A stretch of DNA of 64,000 bases, from positions 1 through 64,000 of IMG/VR virus record IMGVR_UViG_3300007960_000014; one strand, 5' to 3'. Positions within the stretch are counted from its first letter, which is position 1, and every line of letters starts with the position of its first letter. The notes below the pieces were generated by a model. It made no database searches. It saw only the letters and a list, made by a program, of their open reading frames with translations, and was not told the DNA's origin. Positions 17,493-31,910 of this stretch are shown one piece after another. The translations under genes and the position numbers were made by a program. Origin of the DNA: a virus.

Positions 17493-18501
17493 AAGTTCGA
17501 ATTTGATTTAGTCCTTCTAGTAGTTCTTCTTTTGAAAAAACTACATCACTTTCATCAATGTATGTGTTTATGATGTCATCATCAATGGTTAGAAGCTTAC
17601 CTTCCTTTGAGTAGTTTGAAGTTAACTTTGGTAAAACATCATCAAATACAACTTCAAGGTGAGCCAGCGTATACTTAGAGAGGATTTCATATTTGATAGT
17701 GTTCTCGACATAAGAATCTAACGTATCTAATTTAAGGCGCAGGATAGTAAAGAAATCCTTAAACCTAAATTTAGCATTCATCTCGTCTATGTTATGTAAG
17801 CCACATGAAATATGTCGGATACCATAATCAATTTTTTTCCTATGTACCTCTACCTTTCCATCCCTAATCAAAAGAGAGGTTAGCCACTTCTGTGCATTAG
17901 CTTCTCCAAAGCTAGTTGAATATTGAGTACCTAAGATGTGGATATTGTCCTGTATCTGAGGTAGGTGGATATGACCGAGGAAAGAATACTTTCCTTTTGT
18001 GAAATGGCTACGCTTTAGGTAGGAATCATACTTATAGTTACCGTGGGACTGACAGCCGTCGTACCCGAAGTGCCCAAACATATGATTCTTTGATTCTTTA
18101 ACCGCTTTTACAATATCGCTTTCATGCTCAAAGTGCGGAATGAAATCAAAATCAACACCAGCAATTCTTTCTGTGCCGCACTCGGAGAATACTTTGGCTA
18201 TATCACTAAACAATGAGAGTGTAGTCTCTGTAGACCCACTCTTAGATATTGTGTCGTGATTTCCTCTGTTTATATAAATGTCTTGGCACTCCAAACCCTC
18301 CAACAACTCTCTGAAAGCTAGTAGCTCACTGCCTCTTGGATTGCGTCGGTGAAAGATATCACCGTTAATAACAACCGCGTCCGTGGGTTTTTGGTTTACC
18401 AAACGGGTCAGAGTGTCTACTTGAGTTTGTAAGTACCCTGGAATATAATCGCTTCTTAGGTGTAAATCCGTAAGAAGAACTACTCTTTTAGTTCTGGACA
18501 T
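17482..18501 (-). CDS. gp47: SbcD/Mre11-like metallophosphoesterase nuclease (T4 gp47-like)
   Basis: DLH, GDIFH, GNHD, GH, GHIH motifs; paired with gp46. Confidence 0.88.
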   Translation of the reverse strand: MSRTKRVVLLTDLHLRSDYIPGYLQTQVDTLTRLVNQKPTDAVVINGDIFHRRNPRGSELLAFRELLEGLECQDIYINRGNHDTISKSGSTETTLSLFSDIAKVFSECGTERIAGVDFDFIPHFEHESDIVKAVKESKNHMFGHFGYDGCQSHGNYKYDSYLKRSHFTKGKYSFLGHIHLPQIQDNIHILGTQYSTSFGEANAQKWLTSLLIRDGKVEVHRKKIDYGIRHISCGLHNIDEMNAKFRFKDFFTILRLKLDTLDSYVENTIKYEILSKYTLAHLEVVFDDVLPKLTSNYSKEGKLLTIDDDIINTYIDESDVVFSKEELLEGLNQIRTYEN

Positions 18502-20041
18502 AATTAATTAGTTCTGAGTGATTGGTAAGTACCCCTTCCTCAGTAAAGGTTGCCTCGATACCATCTCCGAAAGATTTACCAACTTCGATATCTACCTCAA
18601 AAGGCACAACAAAATCAAAACCATATAGAGCTGGCAGGTCTTGAGTAGACTGCAAGCAATATTTGAGCAGCTCTGATACTTTTTTTATCTCATCAATGTC
18701 GCACTGTACTTCAACCGAGTCGTGAACGGAAGCTAGAAGGTCTAGGTCCAGACCGAGATGGTTTGAATATTTTTTTACGCGCTCAATTCCATGTAGCATG
18801 AGGTCCGAAGCGGAACTTTGAATGATAAAGTTCATCCCCTGGCGGAGAGCTCTCTCTTGATGAGCACGGGATGGGCTGTTAACGTTTTTAAGGTGCCTCC
18901 TGCGCCCAAACAGACTTGTGGCATACCCATCAGACATAATCTTCTTTCTGCCTTCCTTAATCCACGAGAACACGTTAGGAAAGGCACGAGAGTAATCAGC
19001 AAAAATACCTTTGCAATATCCTAAATCTTTGCCCACCTGCTGTGAAAGTTTGTTAGGTCCGCCGCCGTAAACAATAAGGAAGCTTACCGACTTAGCAATC
19101 TGTCGTTCCTCTTTGGTGATGTCGTCAATCGCCTTTCCGTAAATAAGGGAGGCTGTATACTTGTGCAGGTCTTGACCTTCAGTGAACGCCTTAATTAGGT
19201 TAGGGTCTTGGCAGCACTGCGCAAGCACACGGAGTTCCGCCGTAGCATAGTCCGCAGCGACAAAGGCTTTTCCGTCTTCAGCTACCATCAGTTTTCGGAT
19301 GTTCACTGGGTCATCTGCACTTGGTCGTGGCAGGGTGTGGAACGAAACGCCTTTCTTGTATTCCTTGTTAACGTATTTATTTTTCTTATTTAATTCGCGT
19401 ACCTTAACATTAGGAGTTGAACAAGACAGGCGTCCCGTTACCACAGTTGAGAAGTTGTATTGGGAGTAAATCCTCGGCTCCTCATTCCAATCAACAGATT
19501 TGCGAACACCAGTAACATAGGTTTTGTGTTGCTTGATTCTAGTTTTATATTTTAATAGCGTCTCAATAAACTCTTTAGCTTCTTTGTTAGTAGTCTTTGC
19601 TTTAAGTTTGTCTAGATGCTCTTCAGTGATGGAAGGTAGTTTATTTACCTTAGAAAATATCTCGGGCTGCAAATCAAAACCATCAGACGTAAACAGTACA
19701 CCCGCCAACTCTAAAGTTGAGTTTGGATTAAACTCTTTAACGGGAGACAAATCATTTAGCTTAGCTGACAGAGTTTCTATCTCTTTAACGAGAATAGAAT
19801 CTAGCTCCTCCAAATAAGCCACATCTACCTTAATACCCCTGTTCTCCATCTCAGCCATAGTTAGGAGAATATCTTTTAGAATACCGTCGTACACCTTATC
19901 AACCTTCATCGATTTCATCTTAGGTCGCATTTCTCTATACGCACGTAAGGTAAACTTGCAGTCCATGGCGTTACCAAAAGCCATCTCGTCTAAGGGCATG
20001 TTTGCCCAATCTGTTTCTTTTCCGTTGTTTACTGTAAGCAT
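18488..20041 (-). CDS. polA: DNA polymerase family A, C-terminal part (ExoIII segment, thumb, palm, fingers)
   Basis: ME.RG, FNPNS, TGRLS, motif A ADYATAELRVLA, DLH, motif B RQIAKSVSFLIVYG, FGRRR, NF.IQSSASD, motif C SVHDS. Confidence 0.92.
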   Translation of the reverse strand: MLTVNNGKETDWANMPLDEMAFGNAMDCKFTLRAYREMRPKMKSMKVDKVYDGILKDILLTMAEMENRGIKVDVAYLEELDSILVKEIETLSAKLNDLSPVKEFNPNSTLELAGVLFTSDGFDLQPEIFSKVNKLPSITEEHLDKLKAKTTNKEAKEFIETLLKYKTRIKQHKTYVTGVRKSVDWNEEPRIYSQYNFSTVVTGRLSCSTPNVKVRELNKKNKYVNKEYKKGVSFHTLPRPSADDPVNIRKLMVAEDGKAFVAADYATAELRVLAQCCQDPNLIKAFTEGQDLHKYTASLIYGKAIDDITKEERQIAKSVSFLIVYGGGPNKLSQQVGKDLGYCKGIFADYSRAFPNVFSWIKEGRKKIMSDGYATSLFGRRRHLKNVNSPSRAHQERALRQGMNFIIQSSASDLMLHGIERVKKYSNHLGLDLDLLASVHDSVEVQCDIDEIKKVSELLKYCLQSTQDLPALYGFDFVVPFEVDIEVGKSFGDGIEATFTEEGVLTNHSELINYVQN

Positions 20042-20214
20042 TTTAGTTCTCTTATTAAAGTAGATAAATCAATAATTATGTTAGCATATGTAGAGCAAGT
20101 TCCTCCATCTTTTTGTGTATGGTCTCTCACATTTAAGATGTGCTCTAGCGCAGCCTTTAGTGTTTCAATACACTGGTTCACCGCTTCTGGGTGCAAATCT
20201 TTCCTTAACCCCAT
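20029..20214 (-). CDS. Hypothetical 61-aa protein between the two polymerase genes
   Basis: TAATG-coupled to the upstream gene; overlaps the polA start by 13 nt. Confidence 0.55.
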   Translation of the reverse strand: MGLRKDLHPEAVNQCIETLKAALEHILNVRDHTQKDGGTCSTYANIIIDLSTLIRELKCLQ

Positions 20215-21188
20215 TAGTAAGTCTCTAGCTCCGTGGGGAAAAATTCTTTAACCAAATCCATCAAGCCATGAGGTAAGTTCTCGTCAATCAAGGAGTGCAT
20301 CATCTGAGTATCCTCAATGTTGGCAAAATCAGAGATACCTAGATTCATCAAAAACTTCAAATCAAACTTGCAGTTATGGAAAATCTTTGCCTGATTTTTA
20401 TTAGCACATACCTCCTTAAGCCTAGAAATCATCTCATTCAATTCCGTGCCAACAAAGGGGGAATCCTTATGATGGACAGGAAGAATAAACGTAGCAGAGT
20501 CTGAGGCAATACCAATGGTCTGTACTTTATCCTTCTTATAATCAAGCCCTGTCGTTTCTATATCAACTGCAAGCTCGGTATCGTTCTTAATCAAATCGAA
20601 CTGCTCATGAATACTATCAACGGTATCACATAGAACGAAATCAAGCTTAGAAAGCTTATTGTTTCCTAGTACAAACTTATCATAAGCATTGTTTACATCT
20701 TGGATAAACAAAGTTCTTAGTTTGGGCTCTAGGTACAAAGACATTGGGTGGAGAGTTGGAACCACAGCGATTGGCTCCTTGCCCTCTTGCACAAAAGGAA
20801 ACTCTTTCCCCCTCTTGTTTGTAACCCCGGACTTCTTTATGACGGCTTTCATTGCCATATTGCCTAGAGGGATAATCAAGGTAGGGGAAATAGCATCTAA
20901 GTCTTCGTACAAGTACTCCCTGTGCTTGGTAAGCATGGCAGTATCCACATCTGATTCTCTAAAGCCATACGATTTAATCGCCGCAACAAACTGGTAGGAA
21001 TTGTTGGGGAGCTTGGTCTGCTCTAAAAGATGTGAAAGAACACCGAACTCTTCGTCAGTGAACTCATATGTTACTCCATTTTCTCTATGAAAAGAATCAT
21101 GAACAAAGACAATTTTAGCGTCTGTCACCTCTTCTCGGTGAAATTGTTCATCATTCATAAAAGAATTTAGTAAAGAATCAGAAATCAT
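20214..21188 (-). CDS. DNA polymerase N-terminal part: uracil-DNA-glycosylase-like domain plus 3'-5' exonuclease (ExoI, ExoII)
   Basis: P.LIIPLGN.A, KRG and VVPTLHP (family-4 UDG fold); AVDIETTGL (ExoI), FHNCKFD (ExoII), DT.MM..L.DEN. Confidence 0.85.
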   Translation of the reverse strand: MISDSLLNSFMNDEQFHREEVTDAKIVFVHDSFHRENGVTYEFTDEEFGVLSHLLEQTKLPNNSYQFVAAIKSYGFRESDVDTAMLTKHREYLYEDLDAISPTLIIPLGNMAMKAVIKKSGVTNKRGKEFPFVQEGKEPIAVVPTLHPMSLYLEPKLRTLFIQDVNNAYDKFVLGNNKLSKLDFVLCDTVDSIHEQFDLIKNDTELAVDIETTGLDYKKDKVQTIGIASDSATFILPVHHKDSPFVGTELNEMISRLKEVCANKNQAKIFHNCKFDLKFLMNLGISDFANIEDTQMMHSLIDENLPHGLMDLVKEFFPTELETY

Positions 21189-21204: not shown

Positions 21205-21606
21205 ATGGAAAGCTTAAAGAAAAATTATATTGATAATAAGCATTTTGAAAAAACTATAAGACTCTATCTTGAGGATAATGATACCTACGAAGAGGAAGTT
21301 GTTCGTTTATTCGACCTGCTTATTACCAATATATTATTATCTTTTAAATTTAAGATTGAATTTGATGACGCGAAACAAGAGTGTTTTTGTTTAGTCCTCA
21401 AAACATTAAAGAACTTTTCTCCTGAAAAAGGTTCAGCCTTTAATTATTTTACTACCGTCATCTTGAACAATCTAAAGCTTCTCTATACAAAAAGAAAGAA
21501 GTATATTGATAAGGTACACGAGTACCGAAAGATTATGGGTGATTTTGGGGTTCAGTCTCAGACTGAAAAAACTGATACAGATTTGAATACTCCACCTGGA
21601 CGCTAA
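21205..21606 (+). CDS. gp55: Late-transcription sigma factor, T4 gp55-like
   Basis: NYIDNKHF...DAKQEC...NFSPEKGSAFNYFTT matches the region-2 pattern of gp55-like sigma factors. Confidence 0.72.
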   Translation: MESLKKNYIDNKHFEKTIRLYLEDNDTYEEEVVRLFDLLITNILLSFKFKIEFDDAKQECFCLVLKTLKNFSPEKGSAFNYFTTVILNNLKLLYTKRKKYIDKVHEYRKIMGDFGVQSQTEKTDTDLNTPPGR

Positions 21607-25845: not shown

Positions 25846-28266
25846 CTAGCTAGCGCTTGCCACTCCTCCAGTCTGGCTAGTTACGTTGATTTCGAATACG
25901 ACAATTTCTGCAGTTTTCGTAGGCTGTACGATTACCTTACACCAGAGTTCGTTTCTATCGATTCTAGCTGGAGTATTTACTGTCTCATCGCAGATTACCT
26001 TAAAGGCGTCTAAGCCTCTACGGTCTTTAATGTCTTGCAAGAGTGGTTGCAGAACATCAACAATTTGTTGTCTAGTGATTGCATCATTAGGTTCGAACAC
26101 AAAGCGTCTAGTACCAGCTAGGATTTGTTTCCTAATTTGAATCATTAGTCGTCTTACGTTAATTCTATCCAGGGCGGTAGAGGCTCTTTGAGCAGTTCTT
26201 TGCCCGAAGATTACTAAACCGTCCTGAGGGAAGCTTACAATTGGGTTGATTACGTTGCCTCCAGCGTATAGAGTATCTCTGTCGCCTTGGTTAAGAGTAA
26301 CTTCAGCTTCAGTAGGCTTGGTTAGTCTGCCTCTTCTCAAACCAGCAGGAGCAAACCATGGGTCTGCAACTTCATCTGTGAATGCCATCTGTCTGACAGC
26401 AAACACACCTGGGTCTAGATACTGGTCGGTAGCAGTGAAGACATTGAAAGTCTTTAGCCATGACCAATAAATAGCAGCGTAAGAGGAGTTAAGTGGAGAA
26501 GTTCTTCCATCACCTTTTCCGTTATGCCAGTTGATGGCTTCTTGTGCAGTTTTCAATCCTTGTGGGGGAGATAGTACAGCTAAGAAGTTTTGAGTTTGCT
26601 CAGCAACTGTTACTAAGTTATTTTGAACTGATTGCGTAGTAATACCTGGAACTAGGCACAGAGATAGGTTTAAGGTATCATCTCTGAAAGCCTGCATACC
26701 GCTTCTGTTTACTTGGTTTCCAATCAGCGCTTGAGTTACATTAGTATTAGTTAGGCTGTTGTTGTAGCTACCTGCGTCACCATTTACCCCGCTAACAAAG
26801 TCGTAGTTTCCTGCGAGTACTTTAGGGAAGGTTAGTGTTTGTGCACCGTTAGCGTTGTTAAGAGCTAATGAAGCTGCGTAACTAATGCCTTGTTGGGCGT
26901 TACCACTAACACCATTTTGTGCAGCTGCCGTGAACGTTCCACTGTACGTAGTAGGTCTGGTAGTTGTAGCCGCTCCTGCATAGAAGTTGTTAGAGTCTAC
27001 GTAAGCAAATCTAGCGTAGTACAAGTCTGACGTTTCGTTATTGCCATAAGTATTGGTATTAAGCACATCCATAACATCGTAAAGAGTGCTGTTCGGGTCA
27101 TTAACAAAATCTACAATATTGCTCTCAGCGGTAGCGCCGTCACTTTGCATATCAAAGACGGTATCCTTGCCTCTCTTGGCAGTAACCGCAGCTCGCAAGC
27201 CATAGGTAGTGACTCCAGTGCCTGTATTAGTAGAAGAGTAGTTATACCCTAAGCCTGGATGTAGTGATTGTAGGTTAATCGTACCACCCGTTGCCGAGGT
27301 AGGAGCTATGGTATTACCTAGAGAGTATACGCCAGAGCCGACCCAGCCTGATGCGTCTGCATCAGTGGGAAGTCCCGATAGTCCACCTTCGGCAAATCTC
27401 CAACTGTGCTGAACGTCTCCCATGGCAGTATAATCAACACCAGGAGTTCCAAACAGTCTCAGACCCCCCGCAGGACCAGCCATAGAGCTAGGAGCTCCGA
27501 AAGGCTTATCGTCGTTGTCTAAGAAGCCAGCGTTACTTCGTAAATCACTTACAGAAGGTTGAGCTACAGTTCCTCCAGGTCCTTGTAGAGATACATCTCC
27601 ACCACCAGCGACCTGACCAGTAGAGCCTAAAGCGCTAAAGTGGCTTGCAGTACTGGCAAAACCGCGAACTTTCATGTAAGCACCTGCGCCAGCGAACTTA
27701 GAAACGAAAGCGCCAACGTGTCCTTCATCGCCGCTAACGAAAGTAAACGGAGCAGATTCATCTAGGTACGTGGCTACAGTTTCGTTAATAGTATTAATAA
27801 CTTGGTCTTGGTCAGTAGAGCTTGGCACACCGACAACGTAAGGGTTATCAGGGCTTACTTGAACTCCATCTTGGTTCCAAACATCAATGAGGAAAGCGTA
27901 AGAAACTCCAACACCAGCCGATTCGTTAAGACCACTTAGGGAGGAAACCCAGACAGCAGGCTGAGTACCAGCCGATACGTTTACGCTAGCAGCACTTTGT
28001 GTTTGAGCTGCTGCACGAACGAAGTAAACTGAGTTTGTTCTCTCCAGAATTTGGTAAGCACCCCACAGACCCTGACCGCCAACAACAGTTCTTGGGTCAC
28101 CAAAAGTGTTGATTAACTGCTCTGCATTAGATACTAAGATTGCCTTATCTACGGGACCTTTAGACCCAAAGCCGAGAACCCCAACAACACTGCTGTTGAG
28201 GGAAGGGATGTAATCAGAAAAATCTTTTTCTATTACATAATTTCCGGGACTTACGAAACTTGCCAT
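25846..28266 (-). CDS. gp18: Contractile tail sheath protein (T4 gp18-like)
   Basis: FVSPG.Y..E.D, KGPVD, FG.P, PWFAPAG..RG, INPI, GQRT, DRINVRRL, FEPND, CDETVN. Confidence 0.95.
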   Translation of the reverse strand: MASFVSPGNYVIEKDFSDYIPSLNSSVVGVLGFGSKGPVDKAILVSNAEQLINTFGDPRTVVGGQGLWGAYQILERTNSVYFVRAAAQTQSAASVNVSAGTQPAVWVSSLSGLNESAGVGVSYAFLIDVWNQDGVQVSPDNPYVVGVPSSTDQDQVINTINETVATYLDESAPFTFVSGDEGHVGAFVSKFAGAGAYMKVRGFASTASHFSALGSTGQVAGGGDVSLQGPGGTVAQPSVSDLRSNAGFLDNDDKPFGAPSSMAGPAGGLRLFGTPGVDYTAMGDVQHSWRFAEGGLSGLPTDADASGWVGSGVYSLGNTIAPTSATGGTINLQSLHPGLGYNYSSTNTGTGVTTYGLRAAVTAKRGKDTVFDMQSDGATAESNIVDFVNDPNSTLYDVMDVLNTNTYGNNETSDLYYARFAYVDSNNFYAGAATTTRPTTYSGTFTAAAQNGVSGNAQQGISYAASLALNNANGAQTLTFPKVLAGNYDFVSGVNGDAGSYNNSLTNTNVTQALIGNQVNRSGMQAFRDDTLNLSLCLVPGITTQSVQNNLVTVAEQTQNFLAVLSPPQGLKTAQEAINWHNGKGDGRTSPLNSSYAAIYWSWLKTFNVFTATDQYLDPGVFAVRQMAFTDEVADPWFAPAGLRRGRLTKPTEAEVTLNQGDRDTLYAGGNVINPIVSFPQDGLVIFGQRTAQRASTALDRINVRRLMIQIRKQILAGTRRFVFEPNDAITRQQIVDVLQPLLQDIKDRRGLDAFKVICDETVNTPARIDRNELWCKVIVQPTKTAEIVVFEINVTSQTGGVASAS

Positions 28267-30308: not shown

Positions 30309-31910
30309 TTAGGGAGCGACTTGGCTATTCAGAGATGCCTTAGCGAACGGAGTTAACAGGTAGTTAGAGTTCGCGCCGATAATACGGATGATTCGGTAGA
30401 ATCTGGACTCAGGTCCAATACCGACCTTGCCGTACCTAGTGAGCAAGCCCTTTCTAGGTTGGAAGGTTTCTGGGTCCGTAATGGTTGGTAGCATCTGGAG
30501 CGGAATGTATGGGCAGTAGCAGTAGCCAGCATCCATAGGTGAAGAACCTTTGTAGCCCAGCATGATTTCATCATCTGGGTAAAGCGGGTCAACGTAAACG
30601 TCGAACTGACCCATGAACTTACCTTTGTATTGGATGTTAGCACCGAGAGTGCCGATTTCCTCCTTAGGTGCGCCACCCTCAAGCTTAGAAGCTGAGTAAA
30701 GGATAGCAGCCATGAATGGAGAAGTAACAATCCAGTTAGCAGCACCACGCAAGGTACTCTTGTAGATATCTTGCGAAGCGAACTGAATCGCAGCCAACAA
30801 GTTGGCATATACTTCACCAACGTGACGAGGAGCTAGACCAAGTGCACTCGTACCAAAGTCCACAAGAAGGACGTTTTGTAGCGAGCCAGCAGGGTTAGTA
30901 CCAAAGTAACCGTTAGTGGAATCGTATTGGTCGGTAGTAACACCAAACTTGTTGGCATTATCGACACCATTCATAGCGTAATCGAATGCGCCTGGAGTAA
31001 AGTTTACGCCATCGCTACCAAAGTTGTTAGCGTTAGGCTGTTCCAGGCTGCCACGATAACCCCATGCAGCAGAGTTCAGACCCCAATCGTAAGCTAGGTT
31101 ACGAATGTCTTCGATGATTTCACGGTCAATCTCAAGAGCAACTTCCTTACCAAGAAGGTCAGTCAGTTCACGCTCTAGGTCAAGGTTGTGATAAGCACGA
31201 AGGTCTTGTGCAGCCTCTAACGTCCAGAGAGCACGGAACTTACGGGTACGAGCCGTAACTGCCTGCTGTTCGATGTGGAAGTTAATTTGAGGAATAGCTG
31301 AACCAGAAAGTCTTTCACCAGCAGATACGTTGTACTTAGCACCGTAGTAATCAGTTGGAGCAACAGAACTTGGGAAGTTCGCAATGAAACCACCGACTGT
31401 ATCAGGTGATGCAGTAAAAGCGTTACCAGAAAGACCAGATAGAGTCTTACCGCCAGCGCCAGCAGCGTCAGTGCTTACATCAAGTGCGCCTAGGTTACCC
31501 TGGGTAGTAGCAATCTTGCCTGCATAAGTGATGTTAAATCTGCTGTACATAGTGTTACCTTCACCACCGGCAGGGTTAGTAACTCGGTCACTACCTAAGT
31601 AGAATACCTGAGAAACTGGACCTTGCATGGGCTGAACACCAGCAATCTTGTTAGCAATTAGTTCCGGGAACACGCGGCGAACTAGTGGGAAAGCGAACTT
31701 TTGAAAGGTACCGAGGTTGCCTACAGTAGTATCTTCTGAAAGCAAGCCGCCGTTCTCTTTCTGCATGTCAGTAAGGACGCTACGAGCTTGGTTTTCAAGA
31801 AGGACAGCAGTAGACTCGCGAACATACGCGTCATCAATACCCTCAAGAATAGGCTCCCACTTATGAATGAGAGGATTACCCTCTCTAGAATTTTCAGTGA
31901 GATATTGCAT
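30309..31910 (-). CDS. gp23: Major capsid protein (T4 gp23-like)
   Basis: KWEPILEG, AVLLENQ, PLVRRVFP.LIA..I.GVQPM.GP, ARTRK..A.WT.E.AQDL...H.LD.E.EL, EIDRE, YCPYIPL, DP.TFQP..G..TRYG. Confidence 0.96.
   Translation of the reverse strand: MQYLTENSREGNPLIHKWEPILEGIDDAYVRESTAVLLENQARSVLTDMQKENGGLLSEDTTVGNLGTFQKFAFPLVRRVFPELIANKIAGVQPMQGPVSQVFYLGSDRVTNPAGGEGNTMYSRFNITYAGKIATTQGNLGALDVSTDAAGAGGKTLSGLSGNAFTASPDTVGGFIANFPSSVAPTDYYGAKYNVSAGERLSGSAIPQINFHIEQQAVTARTRKFRALWTLEAAQDLRAYHNLDLERELTDLLGKEVALEIDREIIEDIRNLAYDWGLNSAAWGYRGSLEQPNANNFGSDGVNFTPGAFDYAMNGVDNANKFGVTTDQYDSTNGYFGTNPAGSLQNVLLVDFGTSALGLAPRHVGEVYANLLAAIQFASQDIYKSTLRGAANWIVTSPFMAAILYSASKLEGGAPKEEIGTLGANIQYKGKFMGQFDVYVDPLYPDDEIMLGYKGSSPMDAGYCYCPYIPLQMLPTITDPETFQPRKGLLTRYGKVGIGPESRFYRIIRIIGANSNYLLTPFAKASLNSQVAP

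Follow-up and report, generated by a model that had tools for sequence, protein, structure and literature searches.

The replicative family A DNA polymerase (PolA) of the virus recorded as IMGVR_UViG_3300007960_000014 is very probably a naturally fissioned enzyme, encoded by two genes whose products would pair non-covalently as a heterodimer and build the exonuclease site jointly. The stretch analysed here, referred to as the window, comprises positions 1 to 64,000 of this IMG/VR record. In the window, the open reading frame (ORF) for the first part of the polymerase stops inside the 3'-5' exonuclease (proofreading) domain, between the ExoII and ExoIII motifs, and the rest of the enzyme is encoded by a second ORF, with a small ORF of 61 residues in between. 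In the proposed mechanism, gene 1 would supply a domain resembling uracil-DNA glycosylase (UDG) and the ExoI/ExoII part of the exonuclease, while gene 2 would supply the ExoIII helix and the whole polymerase domain. The two chains would be translated separately and then associate non-covalently, the ExoIII helix of chain 2 packing into the RNase-H-like fold of chain 1 to give a DEDD site with its four carboxylates drawn from two polypeptides. The new intergenic junction would in turn have become a slot in which accessory genes come and go. The features of the locus are as follows.

20214..21188, minus strand: PolA piece 1, 324 residues; N-terminal family-4-UDG-like domain and the first two thirds of the 3'-5' exonuclease domain
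20564-20556, minus strand: ExoI residues D209/E211 (DIETTGL), piece 1
20363-20361, minus strand: ExoII residue D276 (HNCKFD), piece 1
20212..20216, minus strand: TAATG, stop codon of piece 1 overlapping the ATG of the 61-residue ORF (sequence reading)
20029..20214, minus strand: 61-residue ORF, member of a conserved helical-hairpin family of 60-70 residues, read as facultative cargo of the gap between the halves
20029..20041, minus strand: 13-nucleotide (nt) overlap, the 61-residue ORF ending inside the start of the polymerase piece (sequence reading)
18488..20041, minus strand: PolA piece 2, 517 residues; end of the exonuclease domain (ExoIII helix) and complete thumb, palm and fingers
19961-19975: ExoIII Gly23-Asp27, residues 23-27 of piece 2
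19963-19961, minus strand: ExoIII residue D27, piece 2
19252-19250, minus strand: motif A residue D264, piece 2
from 19093, minus strand: motif B residues K317/F321/Y325, piece 2
around 18721, minus strand: motif C residues H440-D441, piece 2

Position of the cut within the proofreading domain

The initial annotation had described three minus-strand ORFs at these positions, joined by TAATG upstream and an overlap downstream, with a UDG-like domain, DIETTGL and HNCKFD in the first ORF and a complete polymerase in the last, and all of this agrees with the sequence and with profile searches. Piece 1, which ends in ...FPTELETY before its stop codon, matches Pfam DNA_pol_A_exo1 (PF01612) over residues 193-321 (E 2.7e-18). 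N-terminal to the exonuclease lies a family-4 UDG fold: the Pfam UDG match of piece 1 (E 6e-5, 23.6 bits) is slightly below the 24.3-bit cut-off, the N-half profile matches the family-4 UDG 4zbx (E 2.4e-10), and PF03167 is recorded for many relatives. Piece 2 matches Pfam DNA_pol_A (PF00476) with an E value of 1.8e-80, and its motif A (D264/E269), motif B (K317/F321/Y325) and motif C (H440/D441) residues are invariant in 29 Pol-half sequences. The stop codon of the 61-residue ORF is at 20031-20029 and the polymerase ATG at 20041-20039, an overlap through which the small ORF may be translationally coupled to the polymerase piece.

The DEDD carboxylates are divided over the two chains, with D27 on piece 2 and the other three (D209, E211, D276) on piece 1. 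Among 32 N-half proteins with 47-77% identity, D209 and D276 are invariant and E211 is conserved in at least 90%, and D27 is invariant in the 29 Pol-half sequences. In the profile alignment, positions 11-457 of the Pol-piece profile align to Klenow chain positions 162-587 (chain residue 162 being Pol I residue 485), and D27 falls on Klenow D501, the ExoIII aspartate. An AlphaFold (AF2) model of piece 2, with a predicted local distance difference test (pLDDT) score of 84, has disordered residues 1-8 and a first helix at 17-44; it superposes on Klenow 457-928 with Z 30 and a root-mean-square deviation of 3.5 over 436 aligned residues, and on Bst with Z 35.5. The N-half profile matches Klenow residues 329-435, and against small stand-alone DEDD exonucleases its match ends at position 139 of about 210, so that the final third of the exonuclease fold is missing from piece 1.

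The fused relative P0122 is colinear with both pieces in the alignment. About 41 residues separate the PHGL motif, which follows ExoII, from the ExoIII motif in fused and split forms alike, and the site of the cut corresponds to a stretch that varies in both length and sequence among fused UDG-exo-pol proteins. No residues are lost at the cut, which sits in a linker.

The junction between the halves in relatives

Related loci were fetched from IMG/VR only and number 84 (given L numbers below), of which 72 hold both halves. The break is at the same residue in all 72: piece 1 ends in ELE.[FY] before its stop codon, except for EVLED in three loci (L070, L072, L080), and piece 2 starts with M-L-T-[VI], the stop codon that closes piece 1 and the ATG that opens piece 2 being conserved. 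Homologs of the N-half form 423 protein clusters, the best 120 of which (287-332 residues, 47-99% identity) stem from aquatic metagenomes, marine ones among them, on contigs of up to 118 kb, and are either unnamed or labelled UDG family 4. The nearest longer, fused UDG-exo-pol proteins have 23-31% identity (best E 7e-20). A DNA-level search of GenBank phages gave no match, and at the protein level these phages reach at most 31% identity. Judged from sequence comparison, the fission is of ancient origin and has become fixed across a large clade of T4-like myoviruses, marine and uncultured.

Measured from the piece 1 stop codon to the piece 2 start, the halves are between -1 nt and 3732 nt apart. 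The gap is -1 nt (TAATG) in L015, L021 and L065, 1-2 nt in L068, L070, L072, L080 and L081, 172-175 nt in the window, L001, L002 and L038, and longest (3732 nt) in L046. Relative to piece 1, piece 2 is in frame 0, +1 and +2 in 15, 25 and 22 of 62 distinct junctions, respectively.

These features bear on two explanations offered in the initial annotation, namely a two-subunit PolA with an exonuclease site assembled in trans, and the rejoining of the halves by splicing or ribosomal bypassing. Rejoining into one chain at the RNA or protein level could involve a group I or group II intron, bypass, frameshift or split intein; phage polymerase genes often contain introns and inteins, among them the introns of SPO1-type PolA (cited in PMC10580990), and a TAATG overlap is located at the cut. 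However, gaps from -1 nt to 3.7 kb together with all three relative frames exclude splicing, bypassing and frameshifting. A programmed frameshift or bypass would call for a fixed frame and a short conserved site, where frames are distributed 25:22:15 and gaps reach 3.7 kb; an intron or intein would call for a self-splicing element at the break, where the gap holds unrelated protein genes that differ between relatives. The conservation of the piece 1 stop codon and the piece 2 ATG also speaks against rejoining. An Rfam search of the window's gap gave no family match and no intron family, and the piece termini carry no intein blocks, as the initial annotation had noted, and no extra length, the spacing between ExoII and ExoIII being the same in split and fused forms. 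Rejoining is thus highly improbable, and the suggestion of splicing or bypassing is not upheld.

Pseudogenization, or a sequencing or assembly error in one genome, is hardly credible: a stop codon inside a domain is the only observation that counts for it, against a cut common to 72 of 72 relatives. For both halves, dN/dS (the ratio of nonsynonymous to synonymous substitution rates) is 0.02-0.06 in pairs with unsaturated dS. The stretch with the polymerase locus is present in 19 runs of 12 studies, and independent contigs from runs of three studies span the junction with few substitutions and no indels. In metatranscriptomes, one contig was found, covering only 19700-19834 inside the Pol piece, with the junction outside its span. 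No second PolA was found in the 84,206-base record (77% complete), which gives a single PolA match. The initial annotation had regarded simple decay as unlikely, and the low dN/dS, the retained catalytic residues and the shared cut agree with this; the misassembly and the intact polymerase elsewhere that it had raised find no support in the independent contigs or in the record, whose two halves are under strong purifying selection. It had also asked whether relatives break at the same residue with or without the insert, and they do, about two thirds of them without the 61-residue ORF. Decay, misassembly, splicing, bypassing and frameshifting are excluded as general explanations. What is found instead fits a naturally split polymerase, with a break conserved together with its own stop and start in all 72 loci and both pieces under purifying selection. 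Of the two explanations, the two-subunit PolA with an exonuclease site in trans is the one borne out by the common break, the conserved stop and start, the carboxylates on both chains, the purifying selection and the lack of a second PolA.

One subclade (L009-L015, L055) has a further cut, piece 2 being divided again into 157 and 371 residues with an ATGA overlap, which results in a three-gene PolA. This second cut lies near window Pol residue 143-147 (e.g. L015 6981-8566, L010 3661-5246), and in L015 all three PolA pieces are directly coupled. The subclade is monophyletic with support of 100 in a quick, midpoint-rooted N-half tree, in which the ancestral state of the junction (small ORF or empty) was left unassigned. 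The tolerance of this lineage for further fission fits non-covalent assembly.

It is decidedly improbable that the pieces no longer belong to one enzyme, with piece 1 acting independently as a UDG-like DNA-binding protein or partial nuclease and piece 2 as an exonuclease-deficient polymerase. The loss of the ExoIII tyrosine in favor of an invariant G23, the slightly sub-threshold score of the UDG-like domain and the separation of the two genes by kilobases in some loci would suit such independence. By contrast, the invariant D27 of piece 2 would have no reason to be kept if the rest of the site were absent, nor would the invariant D209 and D276 and near-invariant E211 of piece 1, whose exonuclease fold, stopping at position 139 of about 210, is structurally incomplete alone. 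Moreover, every locus has the two genes in the same order and orientation.

Several points nevertheless weigh against a heterodimer with a composite proofreading site. The initial annotation had placed the ExoIII region at the start of piece 2, which holds for the aspartate (D27) but not for the tyrosine: the residue corresponding to Klenow Y497 is replaced by glycine G23, invariant across the split clade. This replacement may have altered or weakened the proofreading chemistry. Motif C reads HDS rather than HDE, invariantly in the 29 Pol-half sequences, and either the HDS motif or the ExoIII glycine could reflect a change in proofreading or metal binding. The physical association of the chains is proposed because piece 1 holds only part of the exonuclease fold and because there is precedent, and exonuclease activity is predicted. 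With the record 77% complete, the missing quarter might conceivably hold another polymerase. Lastly, the confinement of the family of the 61-residue protein to the slot, and its usual overlap with the polymerase start, leave room for a functional link between this protein and the polymerase.

Junction cargo and the 61-residue protein

In the longer gaps, the slot holds genes for glutamine-synthetase-like (GS-like), ThyX, saccharopine-dehydrogenase-like, PD-(D/E)XK and DUF3310 proteins, and several genes without assignment. The GS-like gene is the commonest cargo, present in about 40 loci (e.g. L004 3762-4847, L047 6963-7928). It encodes 319-361 residues with Gln-synt_N and a partial Gln-synt_C, and in many cases begins at the piece 1 TAATG. 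It does not occur in the window, where the slot contains the 61-residue gene only. Other cargo genes are exemplified by the following.

L029 6783-7838: saccharopine-dehydrogenase-like cargo, 351 residues
L007 6963-7661: ThyX cargo, 232 residues
L051 6975-7460: PDDEXK_11 nuclease cargo, 161 residues

The PD-(D/E)XK genes are always directly upstream of the polymerase start and overlap it (L037, L051, L060, L062 and L073, the last by tblastn). Possibly, they encode a free-standing homing-type nuclease that drives cargo turnover. Four loci designated "noORF" by the ORF filter (L054, L062, L071, L073) contain GS-like, ThyX or PD-(D/E)XK homologs detectable by tblastn, and are not empty spacers. 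In the quick tree, near-identical relatives differ in their cargo: L066 has a gene of an 80-107-residue family where L068 has none (branch lengths 0.003), L077 has a GS-like gene where L081 has none, and L021 has no cargo where L029 has the saccharopine-dehydrogenase-like gene.

The 61-residue ORF belongs to a family of 60-70-residue proteins with 18 distinct sequences, 23-49% identical to the window copy. T33 and Y43 are invariant in 17 homologs, there is a conserved core ...G..TQ.D...N..Y.N.I..., and the AF2 model is a helical hairpin (helices 9-33 and 41-60, pLDDT 83). The protein has no Pfam, PHROG or PDB match, falls into unnamed clusters only in a protein atlas (0.77-0.78), and gives generic helical hairpins only (E above 1) in a Foldseek search with the model. 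Two candidate assignments were rejected. MukB_N was matched by 5 of 17 family members at a lax threshold (best E 6.4e-5), which was taken as coiled-coil noise, and NblA, another marine-phage helical hairpin of about 60 residues, gave no Pfam match even at E 5.

A family hidden Markov model (HMM) finds matches in 25 loci in addition to the window, always in the gap between the halves, and in the IMG/VR loci no match elsewhere within about 6 kb. About two thirds of the loci lack the family, including all those with directly coupled halves (L015, L021, L065, L068, L070, L072, L080, L081). The initial annotation had described the 61-residue ORF as filling the break, and it is indeed present and coupled on both sides in the window; it does not regularly accompany the break, being absent from most relatives. 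Because many relatives do without it, the protein is dispensable for the polymerase. Its dN/dS is 0.24-0.55, and from these sequence comparisons we read the ORF as a real gene under purifying selection and as facultative cargo rather than an obligatory subunit. The dS of the small ORF (0.2-0.7, from about 60 codons only) is several-fold below that of the flanking polymerase halves in the same genome pairs (1.3-2.7), which may reflect recent cassette exchange or RNA constraint.

It is unlikely that the 61-residue protein serves the split polymerase as a clade-specific third subunit or helps to assemble it, for example as a helical clasp at the cut. Its family is restricted to the gap, occurs in several deep branches of the clade and is under purifying selection, and the same 16-nt overlap with the polymerase start in 11 of 18 distinct members (some overlap in 15 of 18) suggests coupled translation. 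These features are set against the roughly two thirds of loci that lack it within about 6 kb, the insertion of another gene between the family member and the polymerase piece in L016 and L039, and a cut with no missing residues for the protein to replace. A three-chain complex prediction with the 61-residue protein as partner gave an interaction score (ipSAE) of 0.00 in both runs, which, with no controls folded and the halves not scored against each other, speaks neither for nor against binding.

It is quite unlikely, though conceivable, that the cut serves as a regulatory device, such that the exonuclease site would exist only when the chains meet. Slot proteins at the cut, such as the 61-residue hairpin, would then tune assembly, fidelity or tolerance of modified bases, and PD-(D/E)XK homing-type nucleases would keep the slot open.

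Known split polymerases and the source phage

In 2023, S-SBP1-like T7-like cyanophages were reported to show the first fission between exo and pol genes among PolAs, and the split T7-like PolA was predicted to reassemble (Czernecki et al., PMC10201439). As in the present clade, PolA in the S-SBP1-like or S-TIP37-like (clade B) T7-like cyanophages is encoded by two adjacent, separately translated genes, an arrangement fixed in a marine clade (PMC10201439; PMC12695635). The two systems differ in PolA lineage (T7-like in those cyanophages, UDG-PolA here) and in the position of the cut, which is at the exo/pol boundary in the cyanophages and between ExoII and ExoIII here. The exo piece of S-TIP37 aligns to residues 1-184 of T7 gp5, including the ExoIII Y-x3-D. 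Furthermore, the cyanophage genes overlap and carry no cargo, whereas the junction here holds variable genes over up to 3.7 kb.

PolA is also in several pieces in the LUZ24-like Pseudomonas phages (Bruynoghevirus), where the NC_010325 annotation lists gp25 as 'DNA polymerase exonuclease subunit', gp34 as 'DNA polymerase part II' and gp36 as 'DNA polymerase'. LUZ24, a cultured phage, resembles the present clade in having unrelated genes between the pieces. Unlike piece 1, gp25 carries ExoI, ExoII and ExoIII on one chain of 169 residues; the other cuts of LUZ24 are in the polymerase domain, and there is no UDG-like domain. The MEP401-type OM43 phages (PMC10580990) have, as here, a two-ORF PolA around one small ORF without assigned function, conserved in related metagenomic genomes. 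Their cut lies inside the polymerase domain, ORF13 comprising the exonuclease and the N-terminal polymerase domain, and an intron was left possible by the authors (PMC10580990).

The domain order of the split enzyme (UDG-like, 3'-5' exonuclease, polymerase) is that of the single-chain UDG-PolAs (SPO1/SP-10 type, N4-like cluster 17; PMC10201439), which are the nearest GenBank-phage homologs at 23-28% identity, PMBT14 being a fused example. These enzymes are one polypeptide and keep the ExoIII Y-x3-D, whereas the split form consists of two chains with glycine in place of the tyrosine. For the family B polymerase of PhiKZ, DNAP-N and DNAP-C were shown by experiment to form a stable, active 1:1 complex (bioRxiv 10.64898/2026.09.30.755723). 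There the cut is in a palm insertion and leaves the exonuclease domain whole on one chain; here a family A enzyme has the site itself divided. No description of a PolA cut between ExoII and ExoIII was found in a limited literature search. The new element is thus the division of the proofreading site, since the split PolAs examined (T7-like cyanophages, LUZ24) keep ExoI-III on one chain.

A large, globally distributed marine T4-like clade would divide its proofreading site over two polypeptides, with one subclade cutting the thumb too. This offers a natural system for the study of DEDD exonuclease site assembly in trans, and ready-made split points for PolA engineering. Domain-based annotation of viromes undercounts or mislabels these polymerase genes, often as "uracil-DNA glycosylase family 4" or hypothetical. 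As a hot spot of auxiliary metabolic genes (GS-like, ThyX, saccharopine-dehydrogenase-like), the junction could also anchor studies of cargo turnover in marine phages.

The neighbors of the polymerase genes are SbcD-like and SbcC-like genes, a small sigma-70-region-2-like gene and a PD-(D/E)XK gene, and the window also encodes ribonucleotide reductase, a DnaB-like helicase and a dUTPase-like protein. Two structural genes were assigned.

25846-28266 of the window: tail sheath
30309-31910 of the window: T4-type major head protein

The major head protein shares about 30-32% identity with its counterparts in T4-like cyanophages and in Flavobacterium phages, including Flavobacterium phage immuto. 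The tail sheath and the T4-type head protein indicate that the virus is a distant T4-like myovirus, one that replicates with a polymerase of family A instead of family B. Across the clade, a protein of 133-141 residues with a weak match to sigma-70 region 2 is encoded head-to-head with piece 1 (window 21205-21606, plus strand; L001 3427-3852; L015 5587-5991).

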